Source: Eledone cirrhosa (lineage: Eukaryota). Taken from it: a stretch of DNA of 64,000 bases. The stretch covers positions 122,512,001 through 122,576,000 of the forward strand of contig OZ024742.1 of assembly GCA_964016885.1 (NCBI GenBank). Direction: 5' to 3'. Under the pieces are notes generated by a model. It saw only the letters and a program-made list of their open reading frames with translations. It was not told where the DNA came from and did no database searches. This document shows positions 2,101 through 25,539 of this stretch, one piece after another (within the stretch, counting starts at the first letter, position 1; each line of letters begins with the position of its first letter). The position numbers and the translations under genes were made by a program.

Positions 2101-3900
2101 TTGTCTCCCTGACATTATCCTCTTTTGATGTTCACATCTCCCAATGTTTTTCTACATGATGTCAGCTCAAGCTTTCAATCATCCATACTGCTCACCAGGA
2201 AATATCTAATGTTAACTGCAATACAAAACATTCTACTATCCAACTATATAGATAGGCACCATGTCATAAGCCTAGCCAATGAAAGGTGCGTGTCTCCTTT
2301 TACAATCTTTAATGATCACCTTATCAATCAGTAATTGATCCTTAGCCCCCCTGCTTCTTCTCATACATCCTTTCTGCTCTTCTGTAGAGTTTCCTCGAGG
2401 TATTCATAAATTGTCTCGTCAATCTTACTTGTCATAAGCTTCTAGAAGGGGGAGTCAAGAGATAGTTCTAAAGTTGTCAAATGCATTTCCTTGCTCTAGT
2501 CCTTCAAACAAAATATCTTTCTTCCAAAGGTTAGCCATTTTGCAACCTCTCTTCTCCATTCAAGATCTTATTCCGTTGATCTGCAATTCTGCCATGAAGG
2601 GTCCCCAGATTGTTTAACTAGCTTCCTTGCACTCCGACTCTGCCGGGAGCTTTTTAATTTGGCATATTTCTATACTGGCTAGTTACCATATCACTTGTTA
2701 TCACCAATTCGTCCTATTGATTATCCTCAATGTCATTTTCGCTGTTCGTCAGTCACTCCAAACTTCTATTGTGTTACTTTCTTACACTACAGATATCACT
2801 CCAAACCTTTTTACTTTCATCTGCACCAGGGATAACATCATCATTCCTAACCATGCCATTTATCTCCCGATCGAATCTCTTCTGTTTTGTTGGAAACGAA
2901 CATTTTGTTTATACTTCGTGATCCGTTGTTCATACCTTTTAATCTTTGCAGCTTTGACAATTCCCTAGTGTTTCAGTCTTCAATTACCGTAGTAATCTGC
3001 ATTCTCCCGATATTGTACTTTCCTGTAAGTTGTTCAATATTTTCCCTATTTTCTTAATTCACCTTGTTTTTCCCTTTCCAGAATATGAATATAATTCCTA
3101 AGCATTTTGATGTCCCCTTCAATCCGATTTTTCCACTATGATTCCTTGATCTGCTTTTGTGTGGTCTGTTTCAGCCATGAACCTTTACCAATGTAAATAT
3201 TTGCAGCGCAATGAGATGTTTGTTTATGTCATGGTTCTAGTTGGCACCTTGTCAAGGATGTTGTTTAATTTATTAGTTATTTCTTTTAACTGGCATTCGT
3301 TTTCTTTATAAATCCATTTCTGATTACAGCCTCCTGATTTAGAGATCTTCAATATACCAGCAATCATCTGTCTCTCTTCCTCTGATATGTGCTTAAGTTC
3401 ATTAATGTTAATGTTCCCACCGCATCATTTACGATATTCAGCTCTGCCTCTTCCTGTTGGATTCCATCATTTTCCATACACTCATCTCTATTTGCATCTC
3501 CAACATCCTGATCTTCTATATCCTCCACACCCTCCTTTTCTTTATCATTTCAATCACCATCTGCGTTTCAATCACCATTTTGCGTATCGCTCTTGCCTGA
3601 TCGCAAATCCTCTGTTCAGTTGATTTAAAAAGCCCTATCTCCTGCAATACTCGTAACACCTTTTGTCTATATCCTTTAAATGGCACACCATTTCCTTTCA
3701 AATGCTTGCTTCTAAAACAGCAGTCAATAACAGCCTTGTTTACCTCCTTATTTCACCTCATTCTAGCAATGTCATGACGTTGATTGCGACTGCTCTAGTC
3801 AACCACAGGACGCCTGGCCCCATTCACATCTTCGTGTAAAGATGTTTTTTTTATTCATTTCACTCATTGAACGTAGTGGTTTAATGTTCCACCATGACCG
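2101..3900 (-). mobile_element. Decayed R4/Dong-clade element, 5' part (N-terminal region to RT motif 'NIKRG..QGD'); likely the same insertion as 1-1184
   Basis: 3516..3701 gives [33 protein letters not shown], a typical R4/Dong N-terminal motif. 2101-2170 reads ELTSCRKTLGDVNIKRG*CQGD, which is continued by LVLRASNAGY...MDDLKLYG left of 1184. Confidence 0.65.
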
Positions 3901-7787: not shown

Positions 7788-7816
7788 TTATTATTATTAT
7801 TATTATTATTATTATT
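7788..7816. repeat. (TTA)~10 microsatellite spacer
   Basis: Direct reading; lies between the R4-B 5' end and the Tx1 copy 1 5' end. Confidence 0.95.
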
Positions 7817-8031
7817 GAATGCCATGGTTGACGGAGGCTCGGCTCTGTAAGGTATAGTAATTTTTAACCGTTAAAACAATTGTAAATTGTTTAAAACTTG
7901 AACCAAATTGTTGATAAAGACACCCTCCTCCTCGTGAGAGGGGTCTTTCTGTCCGTTATTTGGCCCTTCGGGGCTAAATAACCAGTTATTGGGGTTTTGT
8001 ACCCAACATTTCATTTTAAACAAAAAACAAC

Positions 8032-10128
8032 ATGGCTACGAAAAAGAAATTTCATACGTCACTCCCACTCATTCCGTCTTCTTCTTCCTCAATCATCACT
8101 ACAGCAGAGAGAAGATTGTCTCTCTCCCTCCCTTCTTTAAATGTGTCTCTCTCCCTCCCTTCTCTTTCGCAAGTGACGAAAGAAAAGAAAAGTCTCGTGC
8201 AAAGCGTGCAAGGTTTCTCCACGACGACGACGACAGCGACGAAACAGGTGTGCGGGAAATACGAAAACCCAGTTCATTCGTCTGACGTCAGGAATAATAG
8301 CAGTAGCAGCCGTAATAACAACAGCAACAGTGACAATGAAAACAACAGTAGCAGCCGCAACAGCATCACCAGCAGCATAAACAACAACAGCATTAGCAGC
8401 AGCAACACCAACAACAACTACAGCAACAGCGGCGGAGGCAGTAGTCGTAGTACCTGCAGCAACAACAAAAGTAGCAGCAGCTCTGACGACAACAACAACA
8501 GCAGAGAAAAACCAATCTCATTTGCAGGTATTGCGAAAAACTTGGAAACAATCCTCATAACAAATGAGGAATTAGAGGAAGCGAAGAAGATGGTGACAAA
8601 GAACGGACACCGAGCAATCTGCAAGGCAGCGGAAAATTTTTTCGAAACCCAAGAGCACTGTACGGTCACGTACCGTACAGTAAGTACAAAATCCCGTAGG
8701 GTGGAAAGAGCCACAGAGGCCCAAATACAAAAAGCCTTGGGGTCTGTGTGGCAGCGGAAAACGCACATCACCCGAGGCAAAAAATATGCCACCGTAGACG
8801 TACTTTTTGCCACACCCCAGGAGGCAAAGGCCCAATCAGTAGTGACCCTAAGGAGCGAGGAAATGGTGTTGGTGCCCTCCTACTGCGGGCAAAAAATTGT
8901 GAGGGTCAAACTGACCCACGTCCCCCCCGGAATGACCCCTTCTTGGCTGGCCGCGTCTGTCCTCGTCGGAATCGAGGACAAAACAACTGTACTACAAGTA
9001 CAGAAAAAAGTAAGAGAAGATTGGGTCGGCTCCTCCATTGAGATGCTAATCCAAACCAACCAGGAGTGCATCGAAGCTATCCCGGATGTGATAGACTTCG
9101 ATAACGGCACTCAACTGCCCATAAGTGTTGAGGGCAAACGCCCGAAATGCTTTCGCTGTGGATCGAAGACTCACCTCAGGGCCTTCTGCAACGAGAAGAC
9201 CCTGAGAAAGGAGAAAACCCCCCTCCTTCCGAATCCGGCTCCACGGCTACCAGCAACAGGACAAGCGGCAACCAGGAACGATAGGTCCGTGGCACCCATA
9301 CCCAAGCCACGGAAATCAAAGACAGCAGCAGCAGTGGAAATATTAACAACAACAACAGCAATACCAAATGCAGCTGCAACAGAGACTCCAGTGCAAACAT
9401 CACCAACAACAACAAGTGAAAGAGTGGAGCTGGTACCCCTCCCCGACATTACAGAATCAGACATGGAGTGTGAGGTGGGAGAGGGATGGCAAAAGGTCGC
9501 AAGAAGGCACAAACGCAGAAGCAGCGCATCGTCGCCTTTGAAAAGGGAGGAAAGAAATGAGAAAAGGGTAAAGTCTACTGCAAAGAGACCCACAGCAGCA
9601 ACACCACCAACACCATCACCACCCACACCAGCACCACCATCACCACCGGCGACAACCCCACCGCCAACAACACCTTCAACACCACCACCACAAGCACCAA
9701 CATCGCAAACACAACAACAAAACACACACACCCAGCAACAACGACAAGAAAATAGCAGAACCACACCCCACCCCCAGAAAAACAAATGCACGGCAATAAA
9801 CACACACAACAAGAAACTAATGACTTACATAATTGAACACACAGACATTTCACAACAGGACTACATAATACCAGCACCAATCAAAACGCCAACTAACATA
9901 AGACTGCTAAAAATAGCACAGAAACAATACACAAACATTAAAACGAAATTCCCCAACGCAGTTGGTGATTTCAGGGACCTAGGAGGAACCATCAATCGAA
10001 GAGTATATTCAGATATTCTCTTAGAAGAGCCGACGACCAGCCGAAGGGACGATTCAACGGTCCCTTCACCAGACGATCAAGTGAAAAGGGATGTAAAAAC
10101 CATCCCTCCTCTACCAAAAGTACGGTAA
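8032..10128 (+). CDS. Tx1 ORF1, gag-like nucleic-acid-binding protein (698 aa)
   Basis: CCHC knuckle CFRCGSKTHLRAFC, N/S-rich and P/T-rich low-complexity tracts, basic WQKVARRHKRR motif. Open with the same length in copy 3. Confidence 0.9.
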   Translation: MATKKKFHTSLPLIPSSSSSIITTAERRLSLSLPSLNVSLSLPSLSQVTKEKKSLVQSVQGFSTTTTTATKQVCGKYENPVHSSDVRNNSSSSRNNNSNSDNENNSSSRNSITSSINNNSISSSNTNNNYSNSGGGSSRSTCSNNKSSSSSDDNNNSREKPISFAGIAKNLETILITNEELEEAKKMVTKNGHRAICKAAENFFETQEHCTVTYRTVSTKSRRVERATEAQIQKALGSVWQRKTHITRGKKYATVDVLFATPQEAKAQSVVTLRSEEMVLVPSYCGQKIVRVKLTHVPPGMTPSWLAASVLVGIEDKTTVLQVQKKVREDWVGSSIEMLIQTNQECIEAIPDVIDFDNGTQLPISVEGKRPKCFRCGSKTHLRAFCNEKTLRKEKTPLLPNPAPRLPATGQAATRNDRSVAPIPKPRKSKTAAAVEILTTTTAIPNAAATETPVQTSPTTTSERVELVPLPDITESDMECEVGEGWQKVARRHKRRSSASSPLKREERNEKRVKSTAKRPTAATPPTPSPPTPAPPSPPATTPPPTTPSTPPPQAPTSQTQQQNTHTQQQRQENSRTTPHPQKNKCTAINTHNKKLMTYIIEHTDISQQDYIIPAPIKTPTNIRLLKIAQKQYTNIKTKFPNAVGDFRDLGGTINRRVYSDILLEEPTTSRRDDSTVPSPDDQVKRDVKTIPPLPKVR

Positions 10129-10163
10129 GTGGTCTTTCCCATCTTTTCCACTCTATTTTAAAC

Positions 10164-13100
10164 ATGACCTCACTCAGAATAGGCAGCATAAATGCGCGTG
10201 GCTTGGGGTCGTCATGGAAGCAGGGTCACCTGCTCAACGACCTCAGGTCACTAAACATAGATGTAGTGGCCATCAGCGAGACCAGAATCTCCGAAGCACG
10301 GGCCTTCGCACCGATCTTCGGCGGCTACGATGTGTACGCATCTCCCAGCCGTCCTGGATCGGGTGGAGGAGTTGCTGTGCTTTTTCGGAGAGGTTTGGAT
10401 CTCGCCATACGGGCCATCTTCCTGGACCCAGAGGGTAAGCTGGTGGTGCTGGACGTGACCAGCGGAGACGGGCAAGCTTTCAGGCTAGTGGCCGTCTATG
10501 CCCCGACAGGAGCAGGGCGGCCTGATTTCTTCCGGCGTCTGGAGACCTTTCTTGGAACGTCCCGCTCTTTAGTGTTAGTGGGCGACTGGAACGGGATCTT
10601 AGATGCACGCTGGGACTGTGTGGGATTAGCGGATAGGGGTGGAGGGTGCAAGAGCCTCACCAACCTGCTCAGGCGTTTTGAACTGTCTGACAGGTACCGA
10701 TTGGATTTCCCGAATGTGCCAATGTGGACTTGGACAAACCGCATAGGGTCATCCAGATCATATCTAGATAGAGTATTTTGTAGGGAAATAGATAGGTCTA
10801 GCATAGGCTGTCCACAATTCAAGATAGTCAGCTACACGGACCACAAATTCGTGACCTGTGTGCTTGACTTAGATAGGCTTCATAGACGAGGACCCGGTTA
10901 CTGGAAGCTAAACGCGTCCTTACCAGCGCGCAAGGCCTACAGAGACCGGATTAGCGAACTAGTTAAGCGGGCGTTGACGGGGGCCATCGTCAACAACAAG
11001 TGGTGGTTTGCTCTGAAAAGAGCGATTAGAATAGAATCGATTAGGTTTAGTAAGGCTTTAGCAATAGAGAAAAATAGAGCAGAGGGAGAACTAGTTAGAA
11101 AATTAGACGAGGCGCTTAGCAAAGGCATTGCGACCGACGTGCTTGCGGCGAAATTGGCCCTTGACCAATTCTTCAATGCAAAGCACGAAGGCTGCGTTGT
11201 CAGAGCAAGGGTGCGTGCTCTCAGACACGAGGGGACGAAAGCCGTTCAATGGGCCCGAGTGGCGGAGGCGCGTCGTGGCAACAAAGCCACGATCCGGTCT
11301 TTGGTGGACCACGACGGGCGCATGCTACTCGATCCCGGGCAAATGTGTGAAGCTTTTCAGCGACACTTCGCTCAGCTGTTCGGGGGCAGCGGGGGGCCGG
11401 GTAGAGGGATGGACTTTAGTGTCTACCTCGACGGACTGCCGCGGCTCTCGGCCACTGAGGCGAAGTGTTGCGAAAAGCCGATAACAGCCGCTGAAGTACG
11501 GGAGGCAATGACTGGCTGCACAAGGGGTAAATCGCCTGGTTTGGATGGTCTGCCCTATGAACTTTACGTACAGATGCCAGACTTGTTCGGAGGCCTCTTG
11601 GCGGACGTCTACTGCAACTGGCAACAGAACGGGAGAATTCCCAGTTCTGTGAGCCGAGGAGCGGTGGCACTGCTGAGAAAGGATCCGAACAAGGGGGATA
11701 ACATAGACAATTTCCGGCCCATAACTCTGCTAAACACAGAGTTTAAGATTTTGGCCAAGGTGCTAGCAAATAGGTTGGCGCTTGTCGTTGGTGGTCTGGT
11801 GGGAGAGGCGCAGACATGCGCCATTCCCGACAGATCCATCCACGACAACCTCCACCTCATGCGATACATCGTAGAGAGGGTAGCTAGGGAACCTGGCACG
11901 GGTGGGTCCTTGATCAATTTAGATCAGTCGAAAGCTTTCGATAGGGTCGACCATCGTTACCTAGCGGCAGTCCTGAGGGCGGCTGGCTTTGGGCCCGTCT
12001 TCAGAGGCTGGATCGCTGCCATGCACAGCGACATCTGCTCTGTGGTGAGAGTGAACGGTCACCTGTCGGAACCGTTCAACATCATGCGCTCGGTCCGCCA
12101 AAGATGTCCCCTCTCGTCCCTCTTGTACGTATTGACTCTCGAGCCATTACTGCACAAACTGGAGACGTTGAGGGGAGTCCCGCGCGAACTAGGATGCGGA
12201 AGATCCGTGTCAGCATATGCGGACGATGTCACCGTAGTGGTGTCGAACGCCAAACACATCGAGGCGATCGGCACTACACTAAGAGAATACGAAGCGGTGA
12301 CAGGAGCAATGATCAACCAGGAAAAGTCAGTGGGCCTGCAGCTCGGCACCTGGAGAGGCAGGTCCATGCCGTCCAACAGCGTCGTCGGGCGCTGGACGGA
12401 CGGACCGGTTAAATTGCTAGGGGTCTGGTTCGGTCCGGACCTCCAGACGGACAAAAACTGGGACGAGGTGACGAGCAGGGTGGCTTCTCTCACCCAGAAA
12501 TGGGCCGAGAGGAAGCTATCCCTGAAAGGTCGAGCGGAGGTGGCTAACGCGTACATCGCGTCTGTCATCTGCTACCGCCTAACCGTCGTACCTTGTCCTA
12601 AGCCTCGCCTGACTGCGCTGGAGCGTTTGCTCTTTCGCTTTTTGTGGAAGGGACGTGCTCCGATGGTCAGGCGGTCCATCTGTTGTCAACACCCGCTACG
12701 TGGAGGGCTGGGCATGCCGTGGCTGATGATGCGCAGGCACGCGCTCAGGCTACGACATCTCCACCTCTTCCTCGACGGTGATCAGGTGTGGTCGCCGTTT
12801 GCTAGACGCGTTTTTCCCCAGCTCGTTTCCTTGACGGAGCTGCAGTCCTGGGTCAAGCGAAGACCGAGAGGGAGCGCCTGGAGACTGGAATGTCTTCAGG
12901 CGCTCACAGCCCTCGACCAATCGGGCAATGTGATCGGTGGAAACTCCACCTCGGCGTTCTATAGAGGATTAGTGGAGGAGAAGAGCGACGACGTACTTGG
13001 GGAAACTCTAGGCGTCGACGAAAATCAACTAGCCAATCTCTTCGGAAGAACTTTCGGGCCAGGGCCTATGGACAACTTCCAGAAATCTCTGGCCTGGCAG

Positions 13101-13583
13101 TGCTACCGAGGAGCCTTGCCAGTTCGGGATAAACTCTACAGGCATGGAGGTGCCGTCAGCCGGGCATGTCCGAGATGCGCGCAGGGCGACGAAACCGTCC
13201 TGCACGCACTCGTCCAGTGTCCGAAAATTGCTGACTTGTGGGTTTATGTCGAACACCTGCTGTCGCGTTTAGGACGGATCCAGCTATCATCTGAGTCTAT
13301 CGTGAGGATTGCCCCGCCCTCCTCCTTTAGCCGGGAAGGGCAGGCAGTTTTTATCTGTCTGGTGGCCATGGCGAAAGAGATAGTATGGTGGACACGTTTG
13401 AAAGGGCTGAAGACGAGCACTTACCTCTTCGGTGATGCTCTGATTGACTTTTTCAAATTTCATTTGAAAAGGAAAATCAGAGTAGAGAAGGAAGTGCTCT
13501 CTTCCCAGCATTTTGTTGAAAGATGGGTGAGAGAAGCAAGAATGGCCCGAGTGAATGGGCCGACTCTGAGTATATATCTGTAA
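10164..13583 (+). CDS. Tx1 ORF2: APE endonuclease + reverse transcriptase + C-terminal zinc finger (1139 aa)
   Basis: APE motifs SINARG, ISET, VYAP, GDWN, YLDR, TDH. RT motifs through YADD. C-terminal CPRC...ET..H....C. Motif B' reads QRCPLS rather than QGCPLS. Confidence 0.95.
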   Translation: MTSLRIGSINARGLGSSWKQGHLLNDLRSLNIDVVAISETRISEARAFAPIFGGYDVYASPSRPGSGGGVAVLFRRGLDLAIRAIFLDPEGKLVVLDVTSGDGQAFRLVAVYAPTGAGRPDFFRRLETFLGTSRSLVLVGDWNGILDARWDCVGLADRGGGCKSLTNLLRRFELSDRYRLDFPNVPMWTWTNRIGSSRSYLDRVFCREIDRSSIGCPQFKIVSYTDHKFVTCVLDLDRLHRRGPGYWKLNASLPARKAYRDRISELVKRALTGAIVNNKWWFALKRAIRIESIRFSKALAIEKNRAEGELVRKLDEALSKGIATDVLAAKLALDQFFNAKHEGCVVRARVRALRHEGTKAVQWARVAEARRGNKATIRSLVDHDGRMLLDPGQMCEAFQRHFAQLFGGSGGPGRGMDFSVYLDGLPRLSATEAKCCEKPITAAEVREAMTGCTRGKSPGLDGLPYELYVQMPDLFGGLLADVYCNWQQNGRIPSSVSRGAVALLRKDPNKGDNIDNFRPITLLNTEFKILAKVLANRLALVVGGLVGEAQTCAIPDRSIHDNLHLMRYIVERVAREPGTGGSLINLDQSKAFDRVDHRYLAAVLRAAGFGPVFRGWIAAMHSDICSVVRVNGHLSEPFNIMRSVRQRCPLSSLLYVLTLEPLLHKLETLRGVPRELGCGRSVSAYADDVTVVVSNAKHIEAIGTTLREYEAVTGAMINQEKSVGLQLGTWRGRSMPSNSVVGRWTDGPVKLLGVWFGPDLQTDKNWDEVTSRVASLTQKWAERKLSLKGRAEVANAYIASVICYRLTVVPCPKPRLTALERLLFRFLWKGRAPMVRRSICCQHPLRGGLGMPWLMMRRHALRLRHLHLFLDGDQVWSPFARRVFPQLVSLTELQSWVKRRPRGSAWRLECLQALTALDQSGNVIGGNSTSAFYRGLVEEKSDDVLGETLGVDENQLANLFGRTFGPGPMDNFQKSLAWQCYRGALPVRDKLYRHGGAVSRACPRCAQGDETVLHALVQCPKIADLWVYVEHLLSRLGRIQLSSESIVRIAPPSSFSREGQAVFICLVAMAKEIVWWTRLKGLKTSTYLFGDALIDFFKFHLKRKIRVEKEVLSSQHFVERWVREARMARVNGPTLSIYL

Positions 13584-13844
13584 ACTAAAGGTGGAAAACT
13601 GGGAGAGGGCACTTGCCTTGGTGGTCAGGGTCATTGTGGCTTTTTACGGGGCTTTCTCCACAAATGTCCCTCCGAAGTCTCCCCCCTATTGGGGAATTTT
13701 TCATTGTTATTTTCATTGTTATTTTTGTTACATCCTCTGTTTTTGTTTTTTTTACACGCAGAAATGCCCATTTGTACCGTCCTGCATTGTCCTGCACTGT
13801 CCTTAATGTCTACTTTATGTAAACCCTTGTGGTTAATAAAGAAA

Positions 13845-13846
<2 letters not shown>

Positions 13847-13891
<45 letters not shown>

Positions 13892-13899
13892 GTTATTAC
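13847..13899. repeat. (ATT)~17 microsatellite shared as 3' flank by Tx1 copy 1 and R4-A (tail-to-tail)
   Basis: Direct reading. Confidence 0.95.
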
Positions 13900-16817
13900 T
13901 CCTTGAGTCTCAATCATTGATGTTAGTTAACTGGAAAGTTTGTTGGAATGAATATCAAGCCACTACCTGCAGCCTCAGATATTCAGGACGTATCGGAGGG
14001 TTCTTGCTGTTCACAGCAAGCATGCCTTTGGAAGCGTTCCAAAAAGCGTGAAGGGGACGATTTTCTTTAACCATCCCTGGAAACTTTTGGAGATAGTCCC
14101 CAGTGCACCTATGACAATCGGGATCACTTTGACTTCATGGCAGTTCCAAATCCTTTTTATCTCCCACTTTAAGTCTTGGTATCGGTTAATTTTCTCCCTC
14201 TCCTTCTCTTGCACTCACGTGTCGAATGGGCAGGCCACATCCACAATCAGGCACGATCTTTTTTCGTTGTCCACAACCACCAGGTCAGGTCTATTGTGTT
14301 CCAGTTTCTTGTCCGTCTGTATCCTAAAATCCCACAGCATCTTCACCTGATCGTTCTCTATCACCGCCTCTGGCTTATGCTCATACCATTTCTCAGAATG
14401 TGGTAAATTGTTTACTTTGCACAGGTGCGAGTGGATTACCCTGCCCATCACATCATGTCTCCAGCCTTTATAGTGGGTCTGGGCTAGGTGTTTACACTCG
14501 GATACAATGTGAGCCACAGTCTCCTCTCTCCACAGATCGTGCACAGTGGGCTAGCTTCCTCCTTGTAAATATGGTGTTTCAATCACTTCGTTTTGAGGGC
14601 CCGCTCCTGCGCAGCCATTAACATTCCTTCTGTAGCCTTTTTAAGGTCTCCTCTTTTCAACCAGTTCCATGTCTGTGGATCTCTAAATTCAGTTTTCTCA
14701 AAGAAGGTACTATGAAGGGATTTTTCCTGAAGGCTGCTCTTTCTCCTTGATGTTATTTCCTCCTTGGACATCCCCTGGCCAATTGTCACCTCCTTCAGTA
14801 CAGTTCTGAGCATTGGCTCCTTACTATCATTCACGTATTTGTGTAGGTTGTTTTTCTCCATCTGAACACAGTCCTCTATGCTGATAAGACCTCTTCCACC
14901 CTCAGATCTCCTTAAGTAGAGTCTATCGACATCACTCCTCTTGTGGGACATGTTGTAGATAGTCAATAGCTTCCTAGTCTTCCTTCCATTTCTTTTTGTT
15001 CAGCAACATTCCATCTCAGAATTCCCGCACTGTACCTAATAATAGACACAGCTCGGGAATTTACTGCACTTATGGCATTCCTACTGTTCAGATGTGACTT
15101 CAATACGCTCCTTACTCTCCGAAGGTATTCAGTTCTTATCAATTCCTTTATTTTTTTGTTCTTGATGTCATCAGCCTCCAGAACGCCCAAATACTTGTAT
15201 CCTTCCTCAGAGTCAATTTCCTTTATCATCTCACCTGTTGGTATCTGGATTCTGTTACTTCTGCTCAACCTACCCCTCCTCATCACAATGACTCCACACT
15301 TACTAATACCAAATTGCATACATAAATCATTGCTGAAAATACGGACAGTGTCAACAAGCACATCCAACTCCTTCTCACTCTTCCCGAAGAGCTTAAGATC
15401 GTCCATGAAGAGGAGGTGATTGTTGGTAAGCCCTCCCTTTCCCAACCTGTATCCTGCTCTCACCTTTCGCAGTACACTGGTCAGGGGCATCAGGGCAAGG
15501 ACAAACAACAGAGGGGACAGGCTATCGCCCTGGAAGATACCTCTCTTGATCTTCACGCTTCCCAAGGATTCTCCAGTTGATGTCAGCTCTGTTTCCCAGG
15601 ACCTCATACTTTTGCCCAACAACTGTCTGATGTTATCTGCCACATTGAAGATCTCCAGGCTTCTGGTGATCCAAGAATGAGGCACCATGTAAAATGCCTT
15701 TCTGTAGTCTATCCATTCCATGGCAAGATCAGTGTGTCTCCTCTTGCAATTCCCCATTACCATCTTATCAATAAGTAACTGCTCCTTTGTACCACGTAAC
15801 TTCTTTCGGCATCCTTTCTGTTCGTCCGGTAACAAGTTGTTTGTGTGGAGGTGATGGTAGATTTCCTCAGACATAATGCTTGTCAACAGTTTCCACATTA
15901 CGGACAGACATGTGATAGGTCTATAGTTGGTAACATCATTACCCTTGATTCGGTCTTTCATTATCAGAACTGTGGTACCTTTTGTCAACCACTCTGGTAC
16001 CTCACCTGACATCAAGCAGTCATTGAACATGGTTGTCAGTTTCGGGTGGAGGGATGTTATGCTTTTAATCCAATACCTCTGAACACCATCTGGGCCTTGT
16101 GATTTCCAGTTGGTTAGTTTTTTGGCCTGCCCCTTAAGAGTTTCAACTGTGATACTCAAATCAGTTTGTCGGTGTGCCTGTTCACTAATCTCCTTCTGTA
16201 CTGTCTCAATCCACACTGCCTGGTCATTATGTTTAACATCCTGCTCCCATATTCCTCTCCAGAATGTTTTAGTTTGTTCCGCCTCAGGGATCAAGTCGTT
16301 TCCTCTTTCTTTCCCTTCAAGCTGTCCAAACAACATCTTCTGGTTGTTGTCGAACATGCGGTTCTGTCTATACTGACTGACTCTGTTCTCGTATCGCCTG
16401 ATCTTTGCACTCTTTGCTACAATGCGTTGCTTCAGTTCCTCTATGATAATATTTAGCTTTTTCCTCCTAGTTTTGTACTTTATTTCCAGTCTAATTTTTG
16501 TGTCTATGTTTTTTAGTGTCCCATTCAGTAGGGACTCAAGCTTTCCAATGTCATTTCTCATTTCCCTGATTTGACCACTCAGTCGTTTCTTCCACCATGG
16601 CTCTGCTCTTTCTTGTCTTTTGTTTCCTCTCGCTTTTATACCAAGTAGTTTCCTCACAGTATTTGCTGTTTATTTGAGGATATTGTTGCACTGGTGAAGG
16701 CTCCTTGCCTCAAGGTATGGGATGACTTTGTTTACCTTAGCTGTTGTTTCTTTTAACTTTTTCCTGTCTACAAATCTTAGGTTCATAGTTCTCCCACTAT
16801 CATTGTTCAATTCATCT
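13900..16817 (-). mobile_element. R4/Dong family A, longer 5'-truncated copy with disrupted RT-RLE ORF
   Basis: ORF pieces 14963-16657 (NYRPITCL, GIFQGDSLSP, LFMDDLK, YKYLG), 14583-14966, 14215-14544 and 14011-14214. The 3' end matches 4363-4766. Confidence 0.92.
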
Positions 16818-18951
16818 ATTTACCCCTTGTGCAACTATGGGATAACATAGACAATTTCCGGCCCATAACTCTGCTAAACACAGAGTTCAAGATTTTGGCC
16901 AAGGTGCTAGCAAAGAGGTTGGCGCTTGTCGTTGGTGGTCTGGTGGGAGAGGCGCAGATCCATCCACGACAACCTCCACCTCATGCGATACATCGTAGAG
17001 AGGGTAGCTAGGGAACCTGGCACGGGTGGGTCCTTGATCAATTTAGATCAGTCGAAAGCTTTCGATAGGGTCGACCATCGTTACCTAACGGCAGTCCTGA
17101 GGGCGGCTGGCTTTGTGCCCGTCTTCAGAGGCTGGATCGCTGCCATGCACAGCGACATCTGCTCTGTAGTGAGAGTGAACGGTCACCTTTCGGAACCGTT
17201 CAACATCATGCGCTCGGTCCGCCAAGGATGTCCCCTCTCGTCCCTATTGTACGTATTGACTCTCGAGCCATTACTGCACAAACTGGAGACGTTGAGGGGG
17301 GGTCCCGCGCGAACTAGGATGCGGAAGATCCGTGTCAGCATATGCGGACGATGTCACCGTAGTGGTGTCGAACGCCAAACACATCGAGGCGATCGGCACT
17401 ACACTAAGAGAATACGAAGCGGTGACAGGAGCAATGATCAACCAGGAAAAGTCAGTGGGCCTGCAGCTCGGCACCTGGAGAGGCAGGTCCATGCCGTCCA
17501 ACAACGTCGTCGGGCGCTGGACGGACGGACCGGTTAAATTGCTAGGGGTCTGGTTCGGTCCAGACCTCCAGACGGACAAAAACTGGGACGAGGTGACGAG
17601 CAGGGTGGCTTCTCTCACCCAGAAATGGGCCGAGAGGAAGCTATCCCTGAAAGGTCGAGCGGAGGTGGCGAATGCGTACAGCGCATCCGTCATCTACTAC
17701 CGCCTGACCGTCGTACCTTGTCCTAAGCCCCGCCTGACTGCGCTGGAGCGTTTGCTCTTTCGCTTCTTGTGGAAGGGACGCGCTCCGATGGTCAGGCGGT
17801 CCATCTGCTGTCAACACCCGCTACGTGGAGGGCTGGGCATGCCGTGGCTGATGATGCGCAGACATGCGCTCAGGCTACGACATCTCCACCTCTTCCTCGA
17901 CGGTGATCAGGTGTGGTCGCCGTTTGCAAGACACGTTTTACCCCAGCTCGTCTCCTTGACGGAGATGCAGTCCTGGGTCAAGCGAAGACCGAGAGGGAGC
18001 GCTTGGAGACTGGAATGTCTTCAGGCGCTCACAGCCCTCGACCAATCGGGCAATGTGATCGGTGGAAACTCCACCTTGGCGTTCTATAGGGGATTAGTGG
18101 AGGGGAAGAGCGACGACGTACTTGGAGAAACTCTAGGCGTCGACGAAAATCAACTAGCCAATCTCTTCGGAAGGACTTTCGGGCCGGGGCCTATGGACAA
18201 CTTCCAGAAATCCCTGGCCTGGCAGTGCTACCGAGGAGCTTTGCCAGTTCGGGATAAACTCTACAGGCATGGAGGTGCCGTCAGCCGGGCATGTCCGAGA
18301 TTCGCAAAGGGCGACGAAACCGTCCTGCACGCACTCGTCCAGTGTCCGAGCATTGCTGACTTGTGGGTTTATGTCGAACACCTGCTGTCACGCGTAGGAC
18401 GGATCCAGCTATCAGCTGAGTCCATCGTGAGGATTGCCCCGCCCCCTTCCTTTAGCCGGGAAGGGCAGGCAGTTTTTATCTGTCTGGTGGCCATGGCGAA
18501 AGAGATAGTATGGTGGACACGTTTGAAAGGGCTGAAGACGAGCACTTACCTCTTCGGTGATGCCCTGATTAACTTTTTCAAATTTCATTTGAAAAGGAAA
18601 ATCAGGGTAGAGAGGGAAGTGCTCTCTTCCCAGCATTTTGTTGAAAGATGGGTGAGAGAAGCAAGTATGGCCCGAATGAATGGGCCTTCTCTGAGTATGT
18701 GTCTGTAAATTAAAGGTGGAAAACTGGGAGAGGGCACTTGCCCTGGTGGTCAGGGCCACTGTGGTCTTTTAATGGGCTTTCTCCACAAATGTCCCTCGGA
18801 AGTCTCCCCCCTATTGGGGAATTTTTTCTTTGTTATTTTATTTCAACCTCCGTTTTTTACACGCAGAAATGCCCATTTGTACCGTCCTGTATTGTCCTGT
18901 ACTGTCCTTAATGTCTACTTTATGTGAACCCTTGTGGTTAATAAAGAAAAC
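16818..18951 (+). mobile_element. Tx1 copy 2, 5'-truncated within the RT, with a short inverted 5' segment
   Basis: Sense homology to copy 1 begins at 16839 (= 11695). 16818-16833 is the reverse complement of 11517-11532. Carries a 20-bp deletion and a +1 frameshift. Ends AATAAAGAAAAC then (ATT)6. Confidence 0.93.
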
Positions 18952-18969
18952 ATTATTATTATTATTATT
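18952..18969. repeat. (ATT)6 spacer between tandem Tx1 copies 2 and 3
   Basis: Direct reading. Confidence 0.95.
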
Positions 18970-19185
18970 GAATGCCATGGTTGACGGAGACTCGGCTCTG
19001 TAAGGTATAGTAATTTTTAACCGTTAAAACAATTGTAAATTGTTTAAAACTTGAACCAAATTGTTGATAAAGACACCCTCCTCCTCGTGAGAGGGGTCTT
19101 TCTGTCCGTTATTTGGCCCTTCGGGGTTAAATAACCAGTTATTGGGGTTTTGTACCCAAAATTTCATTTTAAACAAAAAAACAAC

Positions 19186-21282
19186 ATGGCTACGAAAAAG
19201 AAATTTCATACGTCACTCCCACTCATTCCGTCTTCTTCTTTCTCAATCATCACTACAGCAGAGAGAAGATTGTCTCTCTCCCTCCCTTCTTTAAATGTGT
19301 CTCTCTCCCTCCCTTCTCTTTCGCAAGTGACGAAAGAAAAGAAAAGTCTCGTGCAAAGCGTGCAAGGTTTCTCCACGACGACGACGACAGCGACGAAACA
19401 GGTGTACGGGAAATACGAAAACCCAGTTCATTCGTCTGACGTCAGGAATAATAGCAGTAGCAGCCGTAATAACAACAGCAACAGTGACAATGAAAACAAC
19501 AGTAGCAGCCGCAACAGCATCACCAGCAGCATAAACAACAACAGCATTAGCAGCAGCAACACCAACAACAACCACAGCAACAGCGGCGGAGGCAGTAGTC
19601 GTAGTACCTGCAGCAACAACAAAAATACCAGCAGCTCTGACGACAACAACAACAGCAGAGAAAAACCAATCTCATTTGCAGGTATTGCGAAAAACTTGGA
19701 AACAATCCTCATAACAAATGAGGAATTAGAGGAAGCGAAGAAGATGGTGACAAACAACGGACACCGAGCAATCTGCAAGGCAGCGGAAAAATTTTTCGAA
19801 ACCCAAGAGCACTGTACGGTCACGTACCGTACAGTAAGTACAAAATCCCGTAGGGTGGAAAGAGCCACAGAGGCCCAAATACAAAAAGCCTTGGGGTCTG
19901 TGTGGCAGCGGAAAACGCACATCACCCGAGGCAAAAAATATGCCACCGTAGACGTACTTTTTGCCACACCCCAGGAGGCAAAGGCCCAATCAGTAGTGAC
20001 CCTAAGGAGCGAGGAAATGGTGTTGGTGCCCTCCTACTGCGGGCAAAAAATTGTGAGGGTCAAACTGACCCACGTCCCCCCCGGAATGACCCCTTCTTGG
20101 CTGGCCGCGTCTGTCATCGTCGGAATCGAGGACAAAACAACTGTACTGCAAGTACAGAAAAAAGTAAGAGAAGATTGGGTCGGCTCCTCCATTGAGATGC
20201 TAATCCAAACCAACCAGGAGTGCATCGAAGCTATCCCGGATGTGATAGACTTCGATAACGGCACTCAACTGCCCATAAGTGTTGAGGGCAAACGCCCGAA
20301 ATGCTTTCGCTGTGGATCGAAGACTCACCTCAGGGCCTTCTGCAACGAGAAGACCCTGAGAAAGGAGAAACCCCCCCTCCTTCCGAATCCGGCTCCACGG
20401 CTACCAGCAACAGGACAAGTGGCAACCAGGAACAATAGGCCCGTGGCACCCATACCCACTCCACGGAAATCAAAAACAGCAGCAGCAGTGGAAATATTAA
20501 CAACAACAACAGCAATACCAAATGCAGCTGCAACAGAGACTCCAGTGCAAACATCACCAACAACAACAAGTGAAAGAGTGGAGCTGGTACCCCTCCCCGA
20601 CCTCACAGAATCAGACATGGAGTGTGAGGTGGGAGAGGGATGGCAAAAGGTCGTAAGAAGGCACAAACGCAGAAGCAGCGCATCGTCGCCTTTGAAAAGG
20701 GAGGAAAGAAATGAGAAAAGGGTAAAGTCTACTGCAAAGAGACCCACAGCAGCAACAACACCAACACCATCACCACCCACACTAGCACCACCATCACCAC
20801 CGGCGACAACCCCACCGCCAACAACACCTTCAACACCACCACCACAAGCACCAACATCGCAAACACAACAACAAAACACACACACCCAGCAACAACGACA
20901 AGAAAATAGCAGAACCACACCCCACCCCCAGAAAAACAAATGCACGGCAATAAATACACACAACAAGAAACTAATGACTTACATAATTGAACACACAGAC
21001 ATTTCACAACAGGACTACATAATACCAGCACCAATCAAAACGCCAACTAACATAAGACTGCTAAAAATAGCACAGAAACAATACACAAACATTAAAACGA
21101 AATTCCCCAACGTAGTTGGTGATTTCAGGGACCTAGGAGGAACCATCAATCGAAGAGTATATTCAGACATTCTCTTAGAAGAGCCGACGACCAGCCGAAG
21201 GGACGATTCAACGGTCCCTTCACCAGACGATCAAGTGAAAAGAGATGTAAAAACCATCCCTCCTCTACCAAAAGTACGGTAA
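19186..21282 (+). CDS. Tx1 ORF1 of copy 3 (698 aa, open)
   Basis: ATG at 19186 is homologous to 8032; same length; few substitutions. Confidence 0.88.
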   Translation: MATKKKFHTSLPLIPSSSFSIITTAERRLSLSLPSLNVSLSLPSLSQVTKEKKSLVQSVQGFSTTTTTATKQVYGKYENPVHSSDVRNNSSSSRNNNSNSDNENNSSSRNSITSSINNNSISSSNTNNNHSNSGGGSSRSTCSNNKNTSSSDDNNNSREKPISFAGIAKNLETILITNEELEEAKKMVTNNGHRAICKAAEKFFETQEHCTVTYRTVSTKSRRVERATEAQIQKALGSVWQRKTHITRGKKYATVDVLFATPQEAKAQSVVTLRSEEMVLVPSYCGQKIVRVKLTHVPPGMTPSWLAASVIVGIEDKTTVLQVQKKVREDWVGSSIEMLIQTNQECIEAIPDVIDFDNGTQLPISVEGKRPKCFRCGSKTHLRAFCNEKTLRKEKPPLLPNPAPRLPATGQVATRNNRPVAPIPTPRKSKTAAAVEILTTTTAIPNAAATETPVQTSPTTTSERVELVPLPDLTESDMECEVGEGWQKVVRRHKRRSSASSPLKREERNEKRVKSTAKRPTAATTPTPSPPTLAPPSPPATTPPPTTPSTPPPQAPTSQTQQQNTHTQQQRQENSRTTPHPQKNKCTAINTHNKKLMTYIIEHTDISQQDYIIPAPIKTPTNIRLLKIAQKQYTNIKTKFPNVVGDFRDLGGTINRRVYSDILLEEPTTSRRDDSTVPSPDDQVKRDVKTIPPLPKVR

Positions 21283-21317
21283 GAGGTCTTTCCCATCTTT
21301 TCCACTCTATTTTAAAC

Positions 21318-24300
21318 ATGACCTCACTCAGAATAGGCAGCATAAATGCGCGTGGCTTGGGGTCGTCATGGAAGCAGGGTCACCTGCTCAACGACCTCAG
21401 GTCACTAAACATAGATGTAGTGGCCATCAGCGAGACCAGAATCTCCGAAGCACGGGCCTTCGCACCGATCTTCGGCGGCTACGATGTGTACGCATCTCCC
21501 AGCCGTCCTGGATGGGGTGGAGGAGTTGCTGTGCTTTTTCGGAGAGGTTTGGATATCGCCATACGGGCCATCTTCCTGGACCCAGAGGGTAAGCTGGTGG
21601 TGCTGGACGTGACCAGCGGAGACGGGCAAGCTTTCAGGCTAGTGGCCGTCTATGCCCCGACAGGAGCAGGGCGGCCTGATTTCTTCCGGCGTCTGGAGAC
21701 CTTTCTTGGAACGTCCCGCTCTTTAGTGTTAGTGGGCGACTGGAACAGGATCTTAGATGCACGCTGGGACTGTGTGGGATTAGCGGATAGGGGTGGAGGG
21801 TGCAAGAGCCTCACCAACCTGCTCAGACGTATTGAACTGTCTGACAGGTACCGATTGGATTTCCCGAATGTGCCAATGTGGACTTGGACAAACCGCATAG
21901 GGTCATCCAGATCATATCTAGATAGAGTATTTTGTAGGGAAATAGATAGGTCTAGCATAGGCTGTCCACAATTCAAGATAGTCAGCTACACGGACCACAA
22001 ATTCGTGATCTGTGTGCTTGACTTAGATAGGCTTCATAGACGAGGACCCGGCTACTGGAAGCTAAACGCGTCTTTACCAGCGCGCAAGGCCTACAGAGAC
22101 CGGATTAGCGAACTAGTTAAGCGGGCGTTGACGGGGGCCATCGTCAACAACAAGTGGTGGTTTGCTCTGAAAAGAGCGATTAGAATAGAATCGATTAGGT
22201 TTATTAAGGCTTTAGCAATAGAGAAAAATAGAGCAGAGGGAGAACTAGTTAGAAAATTAGACGAGGCGCTTAGCAAAGGCATTGCGACCGACGTGCTTGC
22301 GGCGAAATTGGCCCTTGACCAATTCTTCAATGCAAAGCACGAAGGCTGCGTTGTCAGAGCAAGGGTGCGTGCTCTCAGACACGAGGGGACGAAAGCCGTT
22401 CAATGGGCCCGAGTGGCGGAGGCGCGTCGTGGCAACAAAGCCACGATCCGGTCTTTGGTGGCCAACGGCGGGCGCATGCTACTCGATCCCGGGTTAATGT
22501 GTGAAGCTTTTCAGCGACACTTCGCTCAGCTGTTCGGGGGCAGCGGTGGGCCGGGTAGAGGGATGGACTTTAGTGTCTACCTCAACGGACTGCCGCGGCT
22601 CTCGGCCACTGAGGCGAATTGTTGCGAAAAGCCGATAACAGCCGCTGAAGTACGGGAGGCAATGACTGGCTGCACAAGGGGTAAATCGCCTGGTTTGGAT
22701 GGTCTGCCCTATGAACTTTACGTACAGATGCCACACTTGTTCGGAGGCCTCTTGGCGGACGTCTACTGCAACTGGCAACAGAACGGGAGAATTCCCAGTT
22801 CTGTGAGCCGAGGAGCGGTGGCACTGCTGAGAAAGGATCCGAACAAGGGGGATAACATAGACAATTTCCGGCCCATAACTCTGCTAAACACAGAGTTCAA
22901 GATTTTGGCCAAGGTGCTAGCAAAGAGGTTGGCGCTTGTCGTTGGTGGTCTGGTGGGAGAGGCGCAGATCCATCCACGACAACCTCCACCTCATGCGATA
23001 CATCGTAGAGAGGGTAGCTAGGGAACCTGGCACGGGTGGGTCCTTGATCAATTTAGATCAGTCGAAAGCTTTCGATAGGGTCGACCATCGTTACCTAGCG
23101 GCAGTCCTGAGGGCGGCTGGCTTTGGGCCCGTCTTCAGAGGCTGGATCGCTGCCATGCACAACGACATCTGCTCTGTGGTGAGAGTGAACGGTCATCTGT
23201 CGGAACCGTTCAACATCATGCGCTCGGTCCGCCAAGGATGTCCCCTCTCGTCCCTCTTGTACGTATTGACTCTCGAGCCATTACTGCACAAACTGGAGAC
23301 GTTGAGGGGAGTCCCGCGCGAACTAGGATGCGGAAGATCCGTGTCAGCTTATGCGGACGATGTCACCGTAGTGGTGTCGAACGCCAAACACATCGAGGCG
23401 ATCGGCACTACACTAAGAGAATACGAAGCGGTGACGGGAGCAATGATCAACCAGGAAAAGTCAGTGGGCCTGCAGCTCGGCACCTGGAGAGGCAGGTCCA
23501 TGCCGTCCAACAGCGTCGTCGGACGCTGGACGGACGGACCGGTTAAATTGCTAGGGGTCTGGTTCGGTCCGGACCTCCAGACGGACAAAAACTGGGACGA
23601 GGTGACGAGCAGGGTGGCTTCTCTCACCCAGAAATGGGCGGAGAGGAAGCTATCCCTGAAAGGTCGAGCGGTGGTGGCTAACGCGTACATCGCGTCTGTC
23701 ATCTGCTACCGCCTGACCGTCGTACCTTGTCCTAAGCCTTGTCTGACTGCGCTGGAGCGTTTGCTCTTTCGCTTTTTGTGGAAGGGACGTGCTCCGATGG
23801 TCAGGCGGTCCATCAGTTGTCAACACCCGCTAAGTGGAGGGCTGGCATGCCGTGGCTGATGATGCGCAGGCACGCGCTCAGGCTACGACATCTCCACCTC
23901 TTCCTCGACGGTGATCAGGTGTGGTCGCCGTTTGCTAGGCGCGTATTTCCCCAGCTCGTTTCCTTGACGGAGCTGCAGTCCTTCAAGCGAAGACCGAGAG
24001 GGAGCGCCTGGAGACCGGAATGTCTTCAGGCGCTCACAGCCCTCGACCAATCGGGCAATGTGATCGGTGAAAACTCCACCTCGGCGTTCTATAGAGGATT
24101 AGTGGAGGGTAAGAGCGACGACGTACTTGGGGAAACTCTAGGCGTCGACGAAAATCAACTAGCCAATCTCTTCGGAAGAACTTTCGGGCCGGGGCCTATG
24201 GACAACTTCCAGAAATCTCTGGCCTGGCAGTGCTACAGAGGAGCCTTGCCAGTTCGGGATAAACTCTACAGGCATGGAGGTGCCGTCAGCCGGGCATGTC

Positions 24301-24712
24301 GAGATGCGCGCAGGGCGACGAAACCGTCCTGCACGCACTCGTCCAGTGTCCGAAAATTGCTGACTTGTGGGTTTATGTCGAACACCTGCTGTCGCGTTTA
24401 GGACGGATCCGACTATCATCTGAGTCCATCGTGAGGATTGCCCCGCCCTCCTCCTTTAGCCGGGAAGGGCAGGCAGTTTTTATCTGTCTGGTGGCCATGG
24501 CGAAAGAGATAGTATGGTGGACACGTTTGAAAGGGCTGAAGACGAGCACTTTCCTCTTCGGTGATGCTCTGATTGACTTTTTCAAATTTCATTTGAAAAG
24601 GAAAATCAGAGTAGAGAGGGAAGTGCACTCTTCCCAGCATTTTGTTGAAAGATGGGTGAGAGAAGCAAGAATGGCCCGAGTGAATGGGCCTACTCTGAGT
24701 ATATATCTGTAA
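21318..24712 (+). pseudogene. Tx1 ORF2 of copy 3, disrupted
   Basis: Split into 21318-23021, 22936-23859, 23739-24401 and 24296-24712 by a 20-bp deletion and further indels. Confidence 0.92.
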
Positions 24713-24974
24713 ATTAAAGGTGGAAAACTGGGAGAGGGCACTTGCCTTGGTGGTCCGGGTCATTGTGGCTTTTTACTGGGCTTTCTCCACAAATGTCCCT
24801 CCGAAGTCTCCCCCCTATTGGGGAATTTTTCATTGTTATTTTCATTGTTATTTTTTGTTACATCCTCTGTTTTTGTTTTTTACACGCAGAAATGCCCATT
24901 TGTACCGTCCTGCATTGTCCTGCACTGTCCTTAATGTCTACTTTATGTAAACCCTTGTGGTTAATATAGAAATC

Positions 24975-24992
24975 ATTATTATTATTATTACC

Positions 24993-25050
<58 letters not shown>
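24975..25050. repeat. (ATT)5 + (AGT)~19 microsatellite, right border of the cluster
   Basis: Direct reading. Confidence 0.95.
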
Positions 25051-25539
25051 ACAGTATTACTAGTAGAAATAGGAATAATGTTAATGTTGGTTGGTTAGGT
25101 GGTAGTAGTGGTAAATGGTAGTGGTGTAGGGTGTAGTAATAATAATATTATTAATTGTGGTAGTTGCAGGAAGGGGAAGTGGGAGTAGGAGTAGTAATAG
25201 TTGTTGTAGTGTTAGTGTTCATTGTTGTAGTAACAATAATGCCGGTGGTGTGTTGAGTACTAGCTGTGGTGGTAATAGTCACCCCGGGCACCCATTGCCT
25301 TAGGACAGAAAGAAAAAAATATATATTCATCATTTTATTTTTTCTTACCTAAATATGAGAAAGAAATTAAATGTGTTCTTGTTTGATGGAAATGTTAGAA
25401 AATCATTCTATATATTTTTTTAACGATGTAACTAGCTGAAAGGAAACATAACACATGAAACATGAAAAGTAATAGAAATTTATTAAAAAAACCTCGTATG
25501 TTTCACATACATTTTTTTCATTCTGGATCCATGTCGATA

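Follow-up and report, generated by a model that had tools for sequence, protein, structure and literature searches.

A 20-nt inverted Tx1 piece at a head-to-head joint of two LINE families in Eledone cirrhosa, and its tentative twin-priming-like origin

How did two retrotransposons of different families come to be joined head to head, without a microsatellite between them and with a small piece of one of them turned round at the joint? The question is raised by a 64,000-nt stretch of DNA from Eledone cirrhosa (contig OZ024742.1; C3:122512001-122576000 in the 3.0 Gb genome analysed), which is called the window below. Bases 4300–25000 of the window hold a cluster of two families of long interspersed nuclear elements (LINEs), which use a single (TTA)n/(ATT)n microsatellite from opposite strands. 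The joint studied here lies between R4A (13899–16818, minus strand), a 5'-truncated copy of an R4/R2-type LINE, classed with the restriction-like endonuclease (RLE) type, and TxB, a plus-strand copy of the other family, which is referred to as Tx1. The junction is best filed as a rare twin-priming-like Tx1 5' junction beside an older R4-type LINE, overlaid by local exchange. A curiosity of LINE integration, it adds one case to processes already known and represents neither a new system nor a new kind of element.

Anatomy of the junction

Bases 16818–16833 (ATTTACCCCTTGTGCA) are the exact reverse complement of positions 11517–11532, located in TxA (7817–13846, plus strand), the full-length type I Tx1 copy which served as the reference for coordinates 11513–11532 and 11695. 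The same 16-mer is present at 22671–22686 in TxC (18970–24990, plus strand), the second full-length type I copy, which carries a 20-bp deletion in its second open reading frame (ORF2). The initial annotation had reported this 16-nt inverted piece, followed by a filler ACTAT and then by sense Tx1. The inverted piece is as described; most of the filler turned out to be templated. When compared with the form of the element called type II (TAGTT...), the match is exact over 20 nt (16818–16837, minus strand, the reverse complement of positions equal to 11513–11532), and at most the single T at 16838, which separates the inverted piece from the sense piece, is left over. Only 16 nt had been visible because both full-length copies of the window read TGGCT, not TAGTT, at this site. 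The site was typed in 32 loci, two of which (TxB itself and L060) have no readable site. Among the remaining 30 Tx1 copies, 25 read the type II form (...gaCTAGTTGCACAAGGGGTAAAT), four read TGGCT as TxA and TxC do, and one reads TAGCT. A practical lesson is that bases taken for "filler" where repeats meet may disappear when the comparison is made with the proper subfamily.

The 20-mer 16818–16837 occurs at 920 places in the genome. With T16838 added, the 21-mer has two other genomic copies (L032 and L033), both of them ordinary antisense Tx1 copies at the homologous position. The 21-nt match as the sign of a rare source copy was rejected: the body of TxB differs from L032 and L033 at 15–16 of about 1060 sites, against 7–10 for its nearest copies. 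Since the TxB body is not especially near these two copies, T16838 is better read as an extra or mutated base, and would be templated only if the source was the rare variant with two copies.

The sense part of TxB starts at 16839, which aligns to 11695 of TxA and to 22849 of TxC. The skip of roughly 160 nt noted earlier is thus 162 nt (11533–11694), missing between the inverted and the sense pieces. On the other side, the homology of R4A to other copies stops at 16818. All 39 non-self matches to 16400–16838 end at this base (query base 419), and the 29 R4A copies that were fetched all continue after ...TTCATCTA with CCAC(T/C)AA (CCAC(T/C)AAGTTTAGG...) and never with the 16-mer, which confirms that the 16-mer is foreign to R4A. 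The microhomology offered by R4A amounts to 1 nt (A16818), assignable to either partner. A chance origin of the inverted match is negligible and is excluded, with expectations of about 3e-5 for such a 16-mer in the window and about 1e-8 for the 20-mer against a 6-kb element. Every other element junction in the cluster has a TTA/ATT microsatellite, which is missing from this one alone, as had been noticed at first. A contiguous copy of the junction sequence was not found elsewhere in the genome, the 21-mer occurring at three places of which the other two are the antisense Tx1 copies mentioned above. The junction is real in the assembly, unique and well defined.

The absence of the microsatellite was compared with other junctions of the genome. 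The seven other head-to-head R4/Tx1 junctions all keep (TTA)n (L010, L016, L126, L156, L162, L184 and, in the window, 7788–7816), and the genome search gave no support to the idea that microsatellite-free junctions of this kind recur. Among truncated Tx1 junctions, roughly a third to a half are without a 5' repeat, so that a missing repeat is less odd for truncated copies than for head-to-head pairs.

Sequence types and relative ages

TxB was compared site by site with TxA, TxC and 30 other copies. At least three Tx1 sequence types exist at the studied sites: type I (TGGCT...CAATTTCC), type II (TAGTT...TAATTTTA) and type III (TGGCT...TAATTTCA). TxB is a mosaic of the first two. Its first part (16839–17087, plus strand) shows type I states at 16852–17060 (GACAATTTCCGG and others), and its body with the 3' end (17088–18951, plus strand) is type II throughout. 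The inverted piece has the type of the TxB body, type II, as found from 17088 on, and the 237 nt adjoining it are type I and TxC-like. The combination of TAGTT with type II was found in 12 of 26 unselected copies, plus one near-type II copy; TAGTT with the type I word CAATTTCC was found in none of these 26 and in none of 19 type I copies.

The type I subfamily is young and large, and its 31-mer has 1150 exact genomic copies. Among the sampled type I copies TGGCT was present in all 19 that were readable, and the 20-bp deletion in 0 of 20. TxB has this deletion at 16953 together with C16888, and both features are common to TxC. The deletion junction occurs at five genomic places; the combination of type I with the deletion is seen only in TxB and TxC, the other three places belonging to an older lineage. 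Over some 237 nt TxB and TxC are identical, which would have a probability of about 0.03 for a tract of the same age as the elements. Because TxC alone shares the combination, we infer that the first ~237 nt of TxB were copied locally, probably at the DNA level, from the neighbour TxC or from a TxC transcript. An apparent marker private to the three copies of the window (C16852/CC16858-9, seen in 0 of 30 other copies) was dropped, as the 1150 exact copies genome-wide revealed a sampling bias. Mosaic Tx1 copies are common (for instance L055, L057, L058, L062, L064 and L068), which makes an independent conversion tract in TxB not far-fetched. Copies in such LINE clusters exchange sequence locally, and junction forensics must therefore type each segment.

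The relative ages were estimated from private substitutions, counted against the majority of sampled relatives. R4A has 23 in 1910 sites, TxC 14 in 1495, the TxB body 10 in 1866 and TxA 3 in 1520. R4A thus carries about twice as many as the TxB body (Fisher p = 0.035). When all differences from the majority are counted, the contrast is 39 for R4A versus 12 for the TxB body (p = 0.0002), a figure which subfamily structure may inflate. There are 119 CpG in the Tx1 stretch versus 29 in R4A, and with this fourfold excess the age difference between R4A and TxB is conservative. The counts fit an arrival of TxB last, between two older neighbours, and the likely order is R4A first, TxC next and TxB last between them.

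Origin of the junction

In the L1 element of mammals, twin priming was reportedly described by Ostertag and Kazazian in 2001 as the source of 5' inversions with deletion. We propose tentatively, with a probability of about 0.45, that the head-to-head joint was made by a twin-priming-like step at the insertion of TxB. The anatomy of the junction, its rarity, the subfamily types and the relative ages are established by the data; the order of events, the RNA template and the enzyme given here are inferred. R4A would have inserted first into a (TAA/TTA)n microsatellite, ending directly at (TTA)n like its relatives, and TxC would have come next into that same repeat. Thereafter a nick in the bottom strand of the short repeat that separated R4A from TxC would have primed reverse transcription of a type II Tx1 RNA, which would have yielded the sense part and its complete 3' end. 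At the left edge of this repeat, the 3' end of the top strand, reading ...TCTA (or ...TCTATT if some repeat bases were left), would have paired over 1–3 nt with the same RNA at 11532, and about 20 nt would have been added to it on this template. Joining of the two complementary DNAs (cDNAs), without microhomology and with at most one extra T, would have cost 162 nt of Tx1 as well as the repeat's left part. Either then or later, the first ~237 nt of TxB would have been rewritten from TxC, by cDNA or strand invasion or by ordinary gene conversion; the nascent cDNA may have invaded TxC, the cDNA may have switched to a TxC transcript, or a later conversion may have run up to the edge of homology.

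Several features speak for such a step. The inverted piece lies upstream of the sense start in element coordinates and is exact for 20 nt, which is the geometry of twin priming. It continues the top strand after ...TTCATCTA, so its template was the sense strand of a type II Tx1 sequence, copied from 11532, and neither TxA nor TxC could have served since both read TGGCT; the simplest candidate is the RNA of the inserting TxB. The 3' end of TxB is complete and has (ATT)6 after it, as a normal target-primed insertion would leave it. The extent of 5' truncation varies among R4A copies, and within 1 kb of the R4A break point 11 to 13 of the 29 end directly at (TTA)n. Before the insertion one would therefore expect to find a truncated R4A end next to the repeat, and truncation at (TTA)n being routine in this family, no deletion of R4A and no R4 enzyme is needed for the junction. 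Twin priming had been suggested in the initial annotation: the geometry, the strand logic and the subfamily type of the inverted piece relative to the TxB body fit it, and the 5-nt filler has to be given up. As in L1 twin priming, an upstream segment of the element is inverted and stands before a sense 3' segment, the inverted part carries on the target strand on its upstream side, some of the element is missing where the orientation changes, and the 3' end is normal.

Other features weigh against twin priming, and in them the junction departs from the L1 pattern. The inverted part measures only 20 nt, a typical size for the templated inserts of break repair, and L1 inversions are generally far longer. 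The gap of 162 nt is large. The element is a microsatellite-specific Tx1-type LINE of a family in which twin priming is not a habit: in the 35 further truncated 5' junctions of Tx1 that were read, no inverted Tx1 stretch of at least 14 nt occurs. These 35 (13 + 22) include two probable duplicate pairs and two doubtful truncations, and their longest reverse-complement matches are of 10–13 nt and of low complexity. Similarly, in a BLAST comparison of 188 loci no antisense/sense pair of Tx1 segments was seen side by side. The target-site duplication is unreadable, as the target is (TTA)n and its left part is gone. The sense part was overwritten from a neighbour, and the TxC-derived tract starts right at the junction, which calls for a second event or an added step. 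Finally, the 5' junction offers 1 nt of microhomology (3 nt, ATT, only if repeat bases remained) and the inversion junction 0 nt. In human and chimpanzee, about 31% of L1 insertions are 5'-inverted (Kojima 2010, PMC2912911); only 4.6% of the inverted ones are without microhomology at the 5' junction and about 70% have 2–5 bp. L1 variants of twin or dual priming with one very short part, for which two separate RNAs were considered, were described by Meyer et al. 2010 (PMC2837659). The short part of the variants presented there is an inverted poly(A) tail, whereas it is here an internal 20-nt segment of ORF2.

Two further origins of the inverted piece were rejected. Snap-back synthesis on either retained flank fails on polarity and coordinates, as reasoned from the sequence. 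A relic of a separate antisense Tx1 insertion does not fit an internal 20-nt ORF2 fragment without a target-primed 3' end. The TxC-like tract also recalls the chimeric L1 insertions and insertion-linked deletions reportedly described by Gilbert et al. and by Symer et al. in 2002. In those chimeras, as they are said to form, the 5' part comes from a pre-existing copy of the same family by cDNA annealing or invasion, as could be the case here. Unlike them, the donor TxC lies downstream and was copied, not fused, and no deletion was seen between donor and insert.

The TxC-derived tract at the junction points to recombination at the DNA level, and this keeps alive the alternative of post-insertion repair of a DNA break with a templated insert, which the initial annotation had already mentioned. 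We consider this history possible but doubtful. TxB, of type II, and R4A would once have been longer or separated by (TTA)n, and DNA would have been lost when a break was repaired within or close to the repeat, a sequence that is itself cut by thousands of LINE endonucleases. One end would have copied about 240 nt from TxC in an aborted synthesis-dependent strand annealing, the other would have made the 20-nt insert by a microhomology-guided template switch, and the ends would have been joined by a polymerase-theta-type reaction or by break-induced replication that microhomology mediates (MMBIR) or fork stalling and template switching (FoSTeS). Repair would account for both the tract and the size of the insert in one event. 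The tract begins at the junction itself, as expected of repair synthesis, it is identical to TxC including the deletion and C16888 on a type I background, a combination unique to TxB and TxC among the five places and absent from all 20 sampled type I copies, and its lack of differences is the more telling as it would be improbable (about 0.03, as given above) in a tract as old as the elements. The lack of any other 5' inversion among the 35 truncated junctions points the same way. A 20-nt insert with 0–1 nt of microhomology and one stray base has the classic size and look of a templated insertion (PMC4912351, PMC8421209). Insertions attributed to polymerase theta end joining or MMBIR (these two papers and PMC2943611) share with our junction a joint of the deletion type that holds a short templated insert, very little microhomology and a stray base, and likewise an adjoining tract copied from a nearby homologue. 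The junction differs from them by its template, which is present in neither retained flank nor in TxA or TxC, and by a polarity wrong for snap-back; it calls for an RNA, or for a DNA copy that was distant or has been deleted. The difficulty is thus the source of the insert. The template has to be the sense strand of a type II Tx1, which neither retained flank contains; TGGCT rules out TxA and TxC, and the end of the top strand would need to pair over 1 nt with single-stranded sense DNA, either from the deleted part or from some other copy. Repair also demands a large two-sided loss of DNA and two template switches, and truncated R4A ends beside the repeat being the norm, no deletion needs to be invoked there. 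The locus presents one scar with two plausible histories, and it opens no long-standing question.

A very unlikely variant is the single coupled event, in which R4A and TxB inserted at the two ends of one break and the nascent R4A cDNA jumped from R4 RNA to the RNA of a Tx1 particle at work on the other side of the break, copying about 20 nt of it before being joined to the Tx1 cDNA. If this were true, the junction would be a fossil of cross-family template jumping, a hetero "dual priming". The top strand is indeed the cDNA strand of R4A and the inverted piece continues it directly, and both families target opposite strands of the same repeat, so that both enzymes act at such sites. Reverse transcriptases of R2-type and APE-type (apurinic/apyrimidinic endonuclease) LINEs can jump between templates without homology (PMC6895275), and dual priming by two RNAs has been proposed for L1 (PMC2837659). 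Against this stands the age of R4A: the initial annotation had the R4 first-strand cDNA extended on Tx1 RNA, and the roughly twofold excess of private substitutions in R4A, found despite the CpG content of Tx1, disfavours it. The R2-type jumps described in vitro go end to end, whereas both break points are internal here; two ribonucleoprotein particles of different families would have to meet at one site at one time; and the retention of the repeat at all seven other head-to-head junctions gives no sign of a recurrent coupled mode. More improbable still is an artefact of assembly or polishing, by which the junction or the type I tract would not be in the DNA of the animal. The region does consist of high-copy repeats only, and the perfect identity with TxC could in principle reflect mis-polishing. 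However, a mis-join would not produce an inverted stretch that matches exactly, over 20 nt, a subfamily to which none of the full-length neighbours belongs, long reads easily span the mere 2.1 kb of TxB, and the junction is unique and internally coherent.

Should the twin-priming-like insertion of TxB be the true history, a process known in mammalian L1, in which the second target strand primes synthesis at an internal site of the element RNA, would also occur occasionally in a microsatellite-specific Tx1-type LINE, although it is otherwise rare in that family (0 of 35 other truncated junctions).

The two LINE families and the rest of the cluster

Both families had been recognised on the two sides of the joint, with an antisense R4-type LINE on the left and a sense element of Tx1/L1 type on the right. 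The name Tx1 is the label of the initial annotation, and the domains of the family and its closest solved structure point to the L1 clade. Its elements have an ORF1 of about 700 amino acids (aa) and an ORF2 of 1204 aa with Exo_endo_phos (APE), RVT_1 and zf-RVT domains (Pfam), and the best solved relative of ORF2 is human L1 ORF2p (E = 2.5e-52). In TxA both frames are open (ORF1 702 aa; ORF2 1204 aa with APE, reverse transcriptase and zf-RVT). (TTA)n flanks the full-length and many truncated copies, several truncated copies being without the repeat on the 5' side. A 20-mer from the Tx1 3' end occurs 9913 times in the genome, and the family may make up about 1–2% of it. Tandem arrays with a spacing of about 6 kb are common, for instance five matches at C1:234594579-234619244.

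The reverse transcriptase of R4A has R2 proteins as its best solved relatives (E = 4.6e-25, versus 6e-12 for L1 ORF2p). RVT_1 was the sole Pfam match in the R4 family, and no APE domain was detected by this search. Downstream of the reverse transcriptase the R4A frame reads ...RPDLVVVD...IVDVACPFD...EK..RYQDLK, which is PD..D..K-like by eye and gave no match to solved structures at E <= 10; we take it to resemble the RLE motif (CCHC followed by PD..D..K). The R4 3' end adjoins (ATT)n on the plus strand, that is (AAT)n on the element strand, and truncated 5' ends adjoin (TTA)n. Insertion into a (TAA)n-type repeat is the habit of Dong as well, in keeping with an R4 clade of RLE-type, Dong/Rex6-like LINEs. 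The two families thus target opposite strands of the same repeat.

The layout of the cluster was obtained by self-comparison of the window. On the plus strand it runs from a (TTA)n through an R4A 3' fragment, an (ATT)n, a second R4-like element and the (TTA)n at 7788–7816 to TxA. After TxA comes the (ATT)n microsatellite at 13847–13898, a tail-to-tail spacer which separates the 3' end of TxA from that of R4A, then R4A, the studied junction and TxB, and the (ATT)6 at 18952–18969, which joins the 3' end of TxB to the 5' end of TxC; the cluster ends with TxC at 24990. The two halves of the cluster are parallel: 4323–4766 matches 13860–14303 (R4A 3' part plus repeat, 95%) and 7799–13862 matches 18952–24990 (TxA versus TxC, 98.2%). 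This may reflect an old local duplication, or the same subfamilies reusing the same site.

The 20-bp deletion shared by TxB and TxC (16945–16970 and 22955–22980, respectively) lies between short CAGA repeats, and in TxC it breaks ORF2 into frames 21123–23021 and 22921–23859. The same deletion is present in L064, L065 and L068, which are older and look unrelated, and it appears either to be recurrent or to have spread by recombination.

Several Tx1 break points fall near the position at which TxB starts. L060 starts at TxA 3864, L014 and L176 end at 3891 and 3888, and L157 and L164 resume at 3851 and 3855. A hot spot near the G-run at 11690–11697 is not claimed, as only 2 of about 41 right-hand break points of the unselected sample lie in a 60-nt span. 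In L014 (C5:89723529-89726947; locus bases 1400–1410), a sense Tx1 ending at TxA 3891 (...GGGGGATAACATAGAT), a break point 12 nt from the TxB start, is joined directly to antisense R4A without the repeat. This joint looks like a deletion across a tail-to-tail Tx1-(ATT)n-R4A pair. In L060 (C3:255657156-255660825) a head of about 350 nt (TTGGCGACCTA...) stands right after (TTA)n and is fused to Tx1 from TxA 3864. The same head follows (TTA)n beside R4A copies in L002, L004 and L026, and it could represent a Tx1 derivative that is non-autonomous or has an internal deletion, or else the 5' end of another element. Lastly, the repeat that follows TxC, at 24993–25066, is rich in (AGT)n, unlike the (ATT)n of the other 3' ends.

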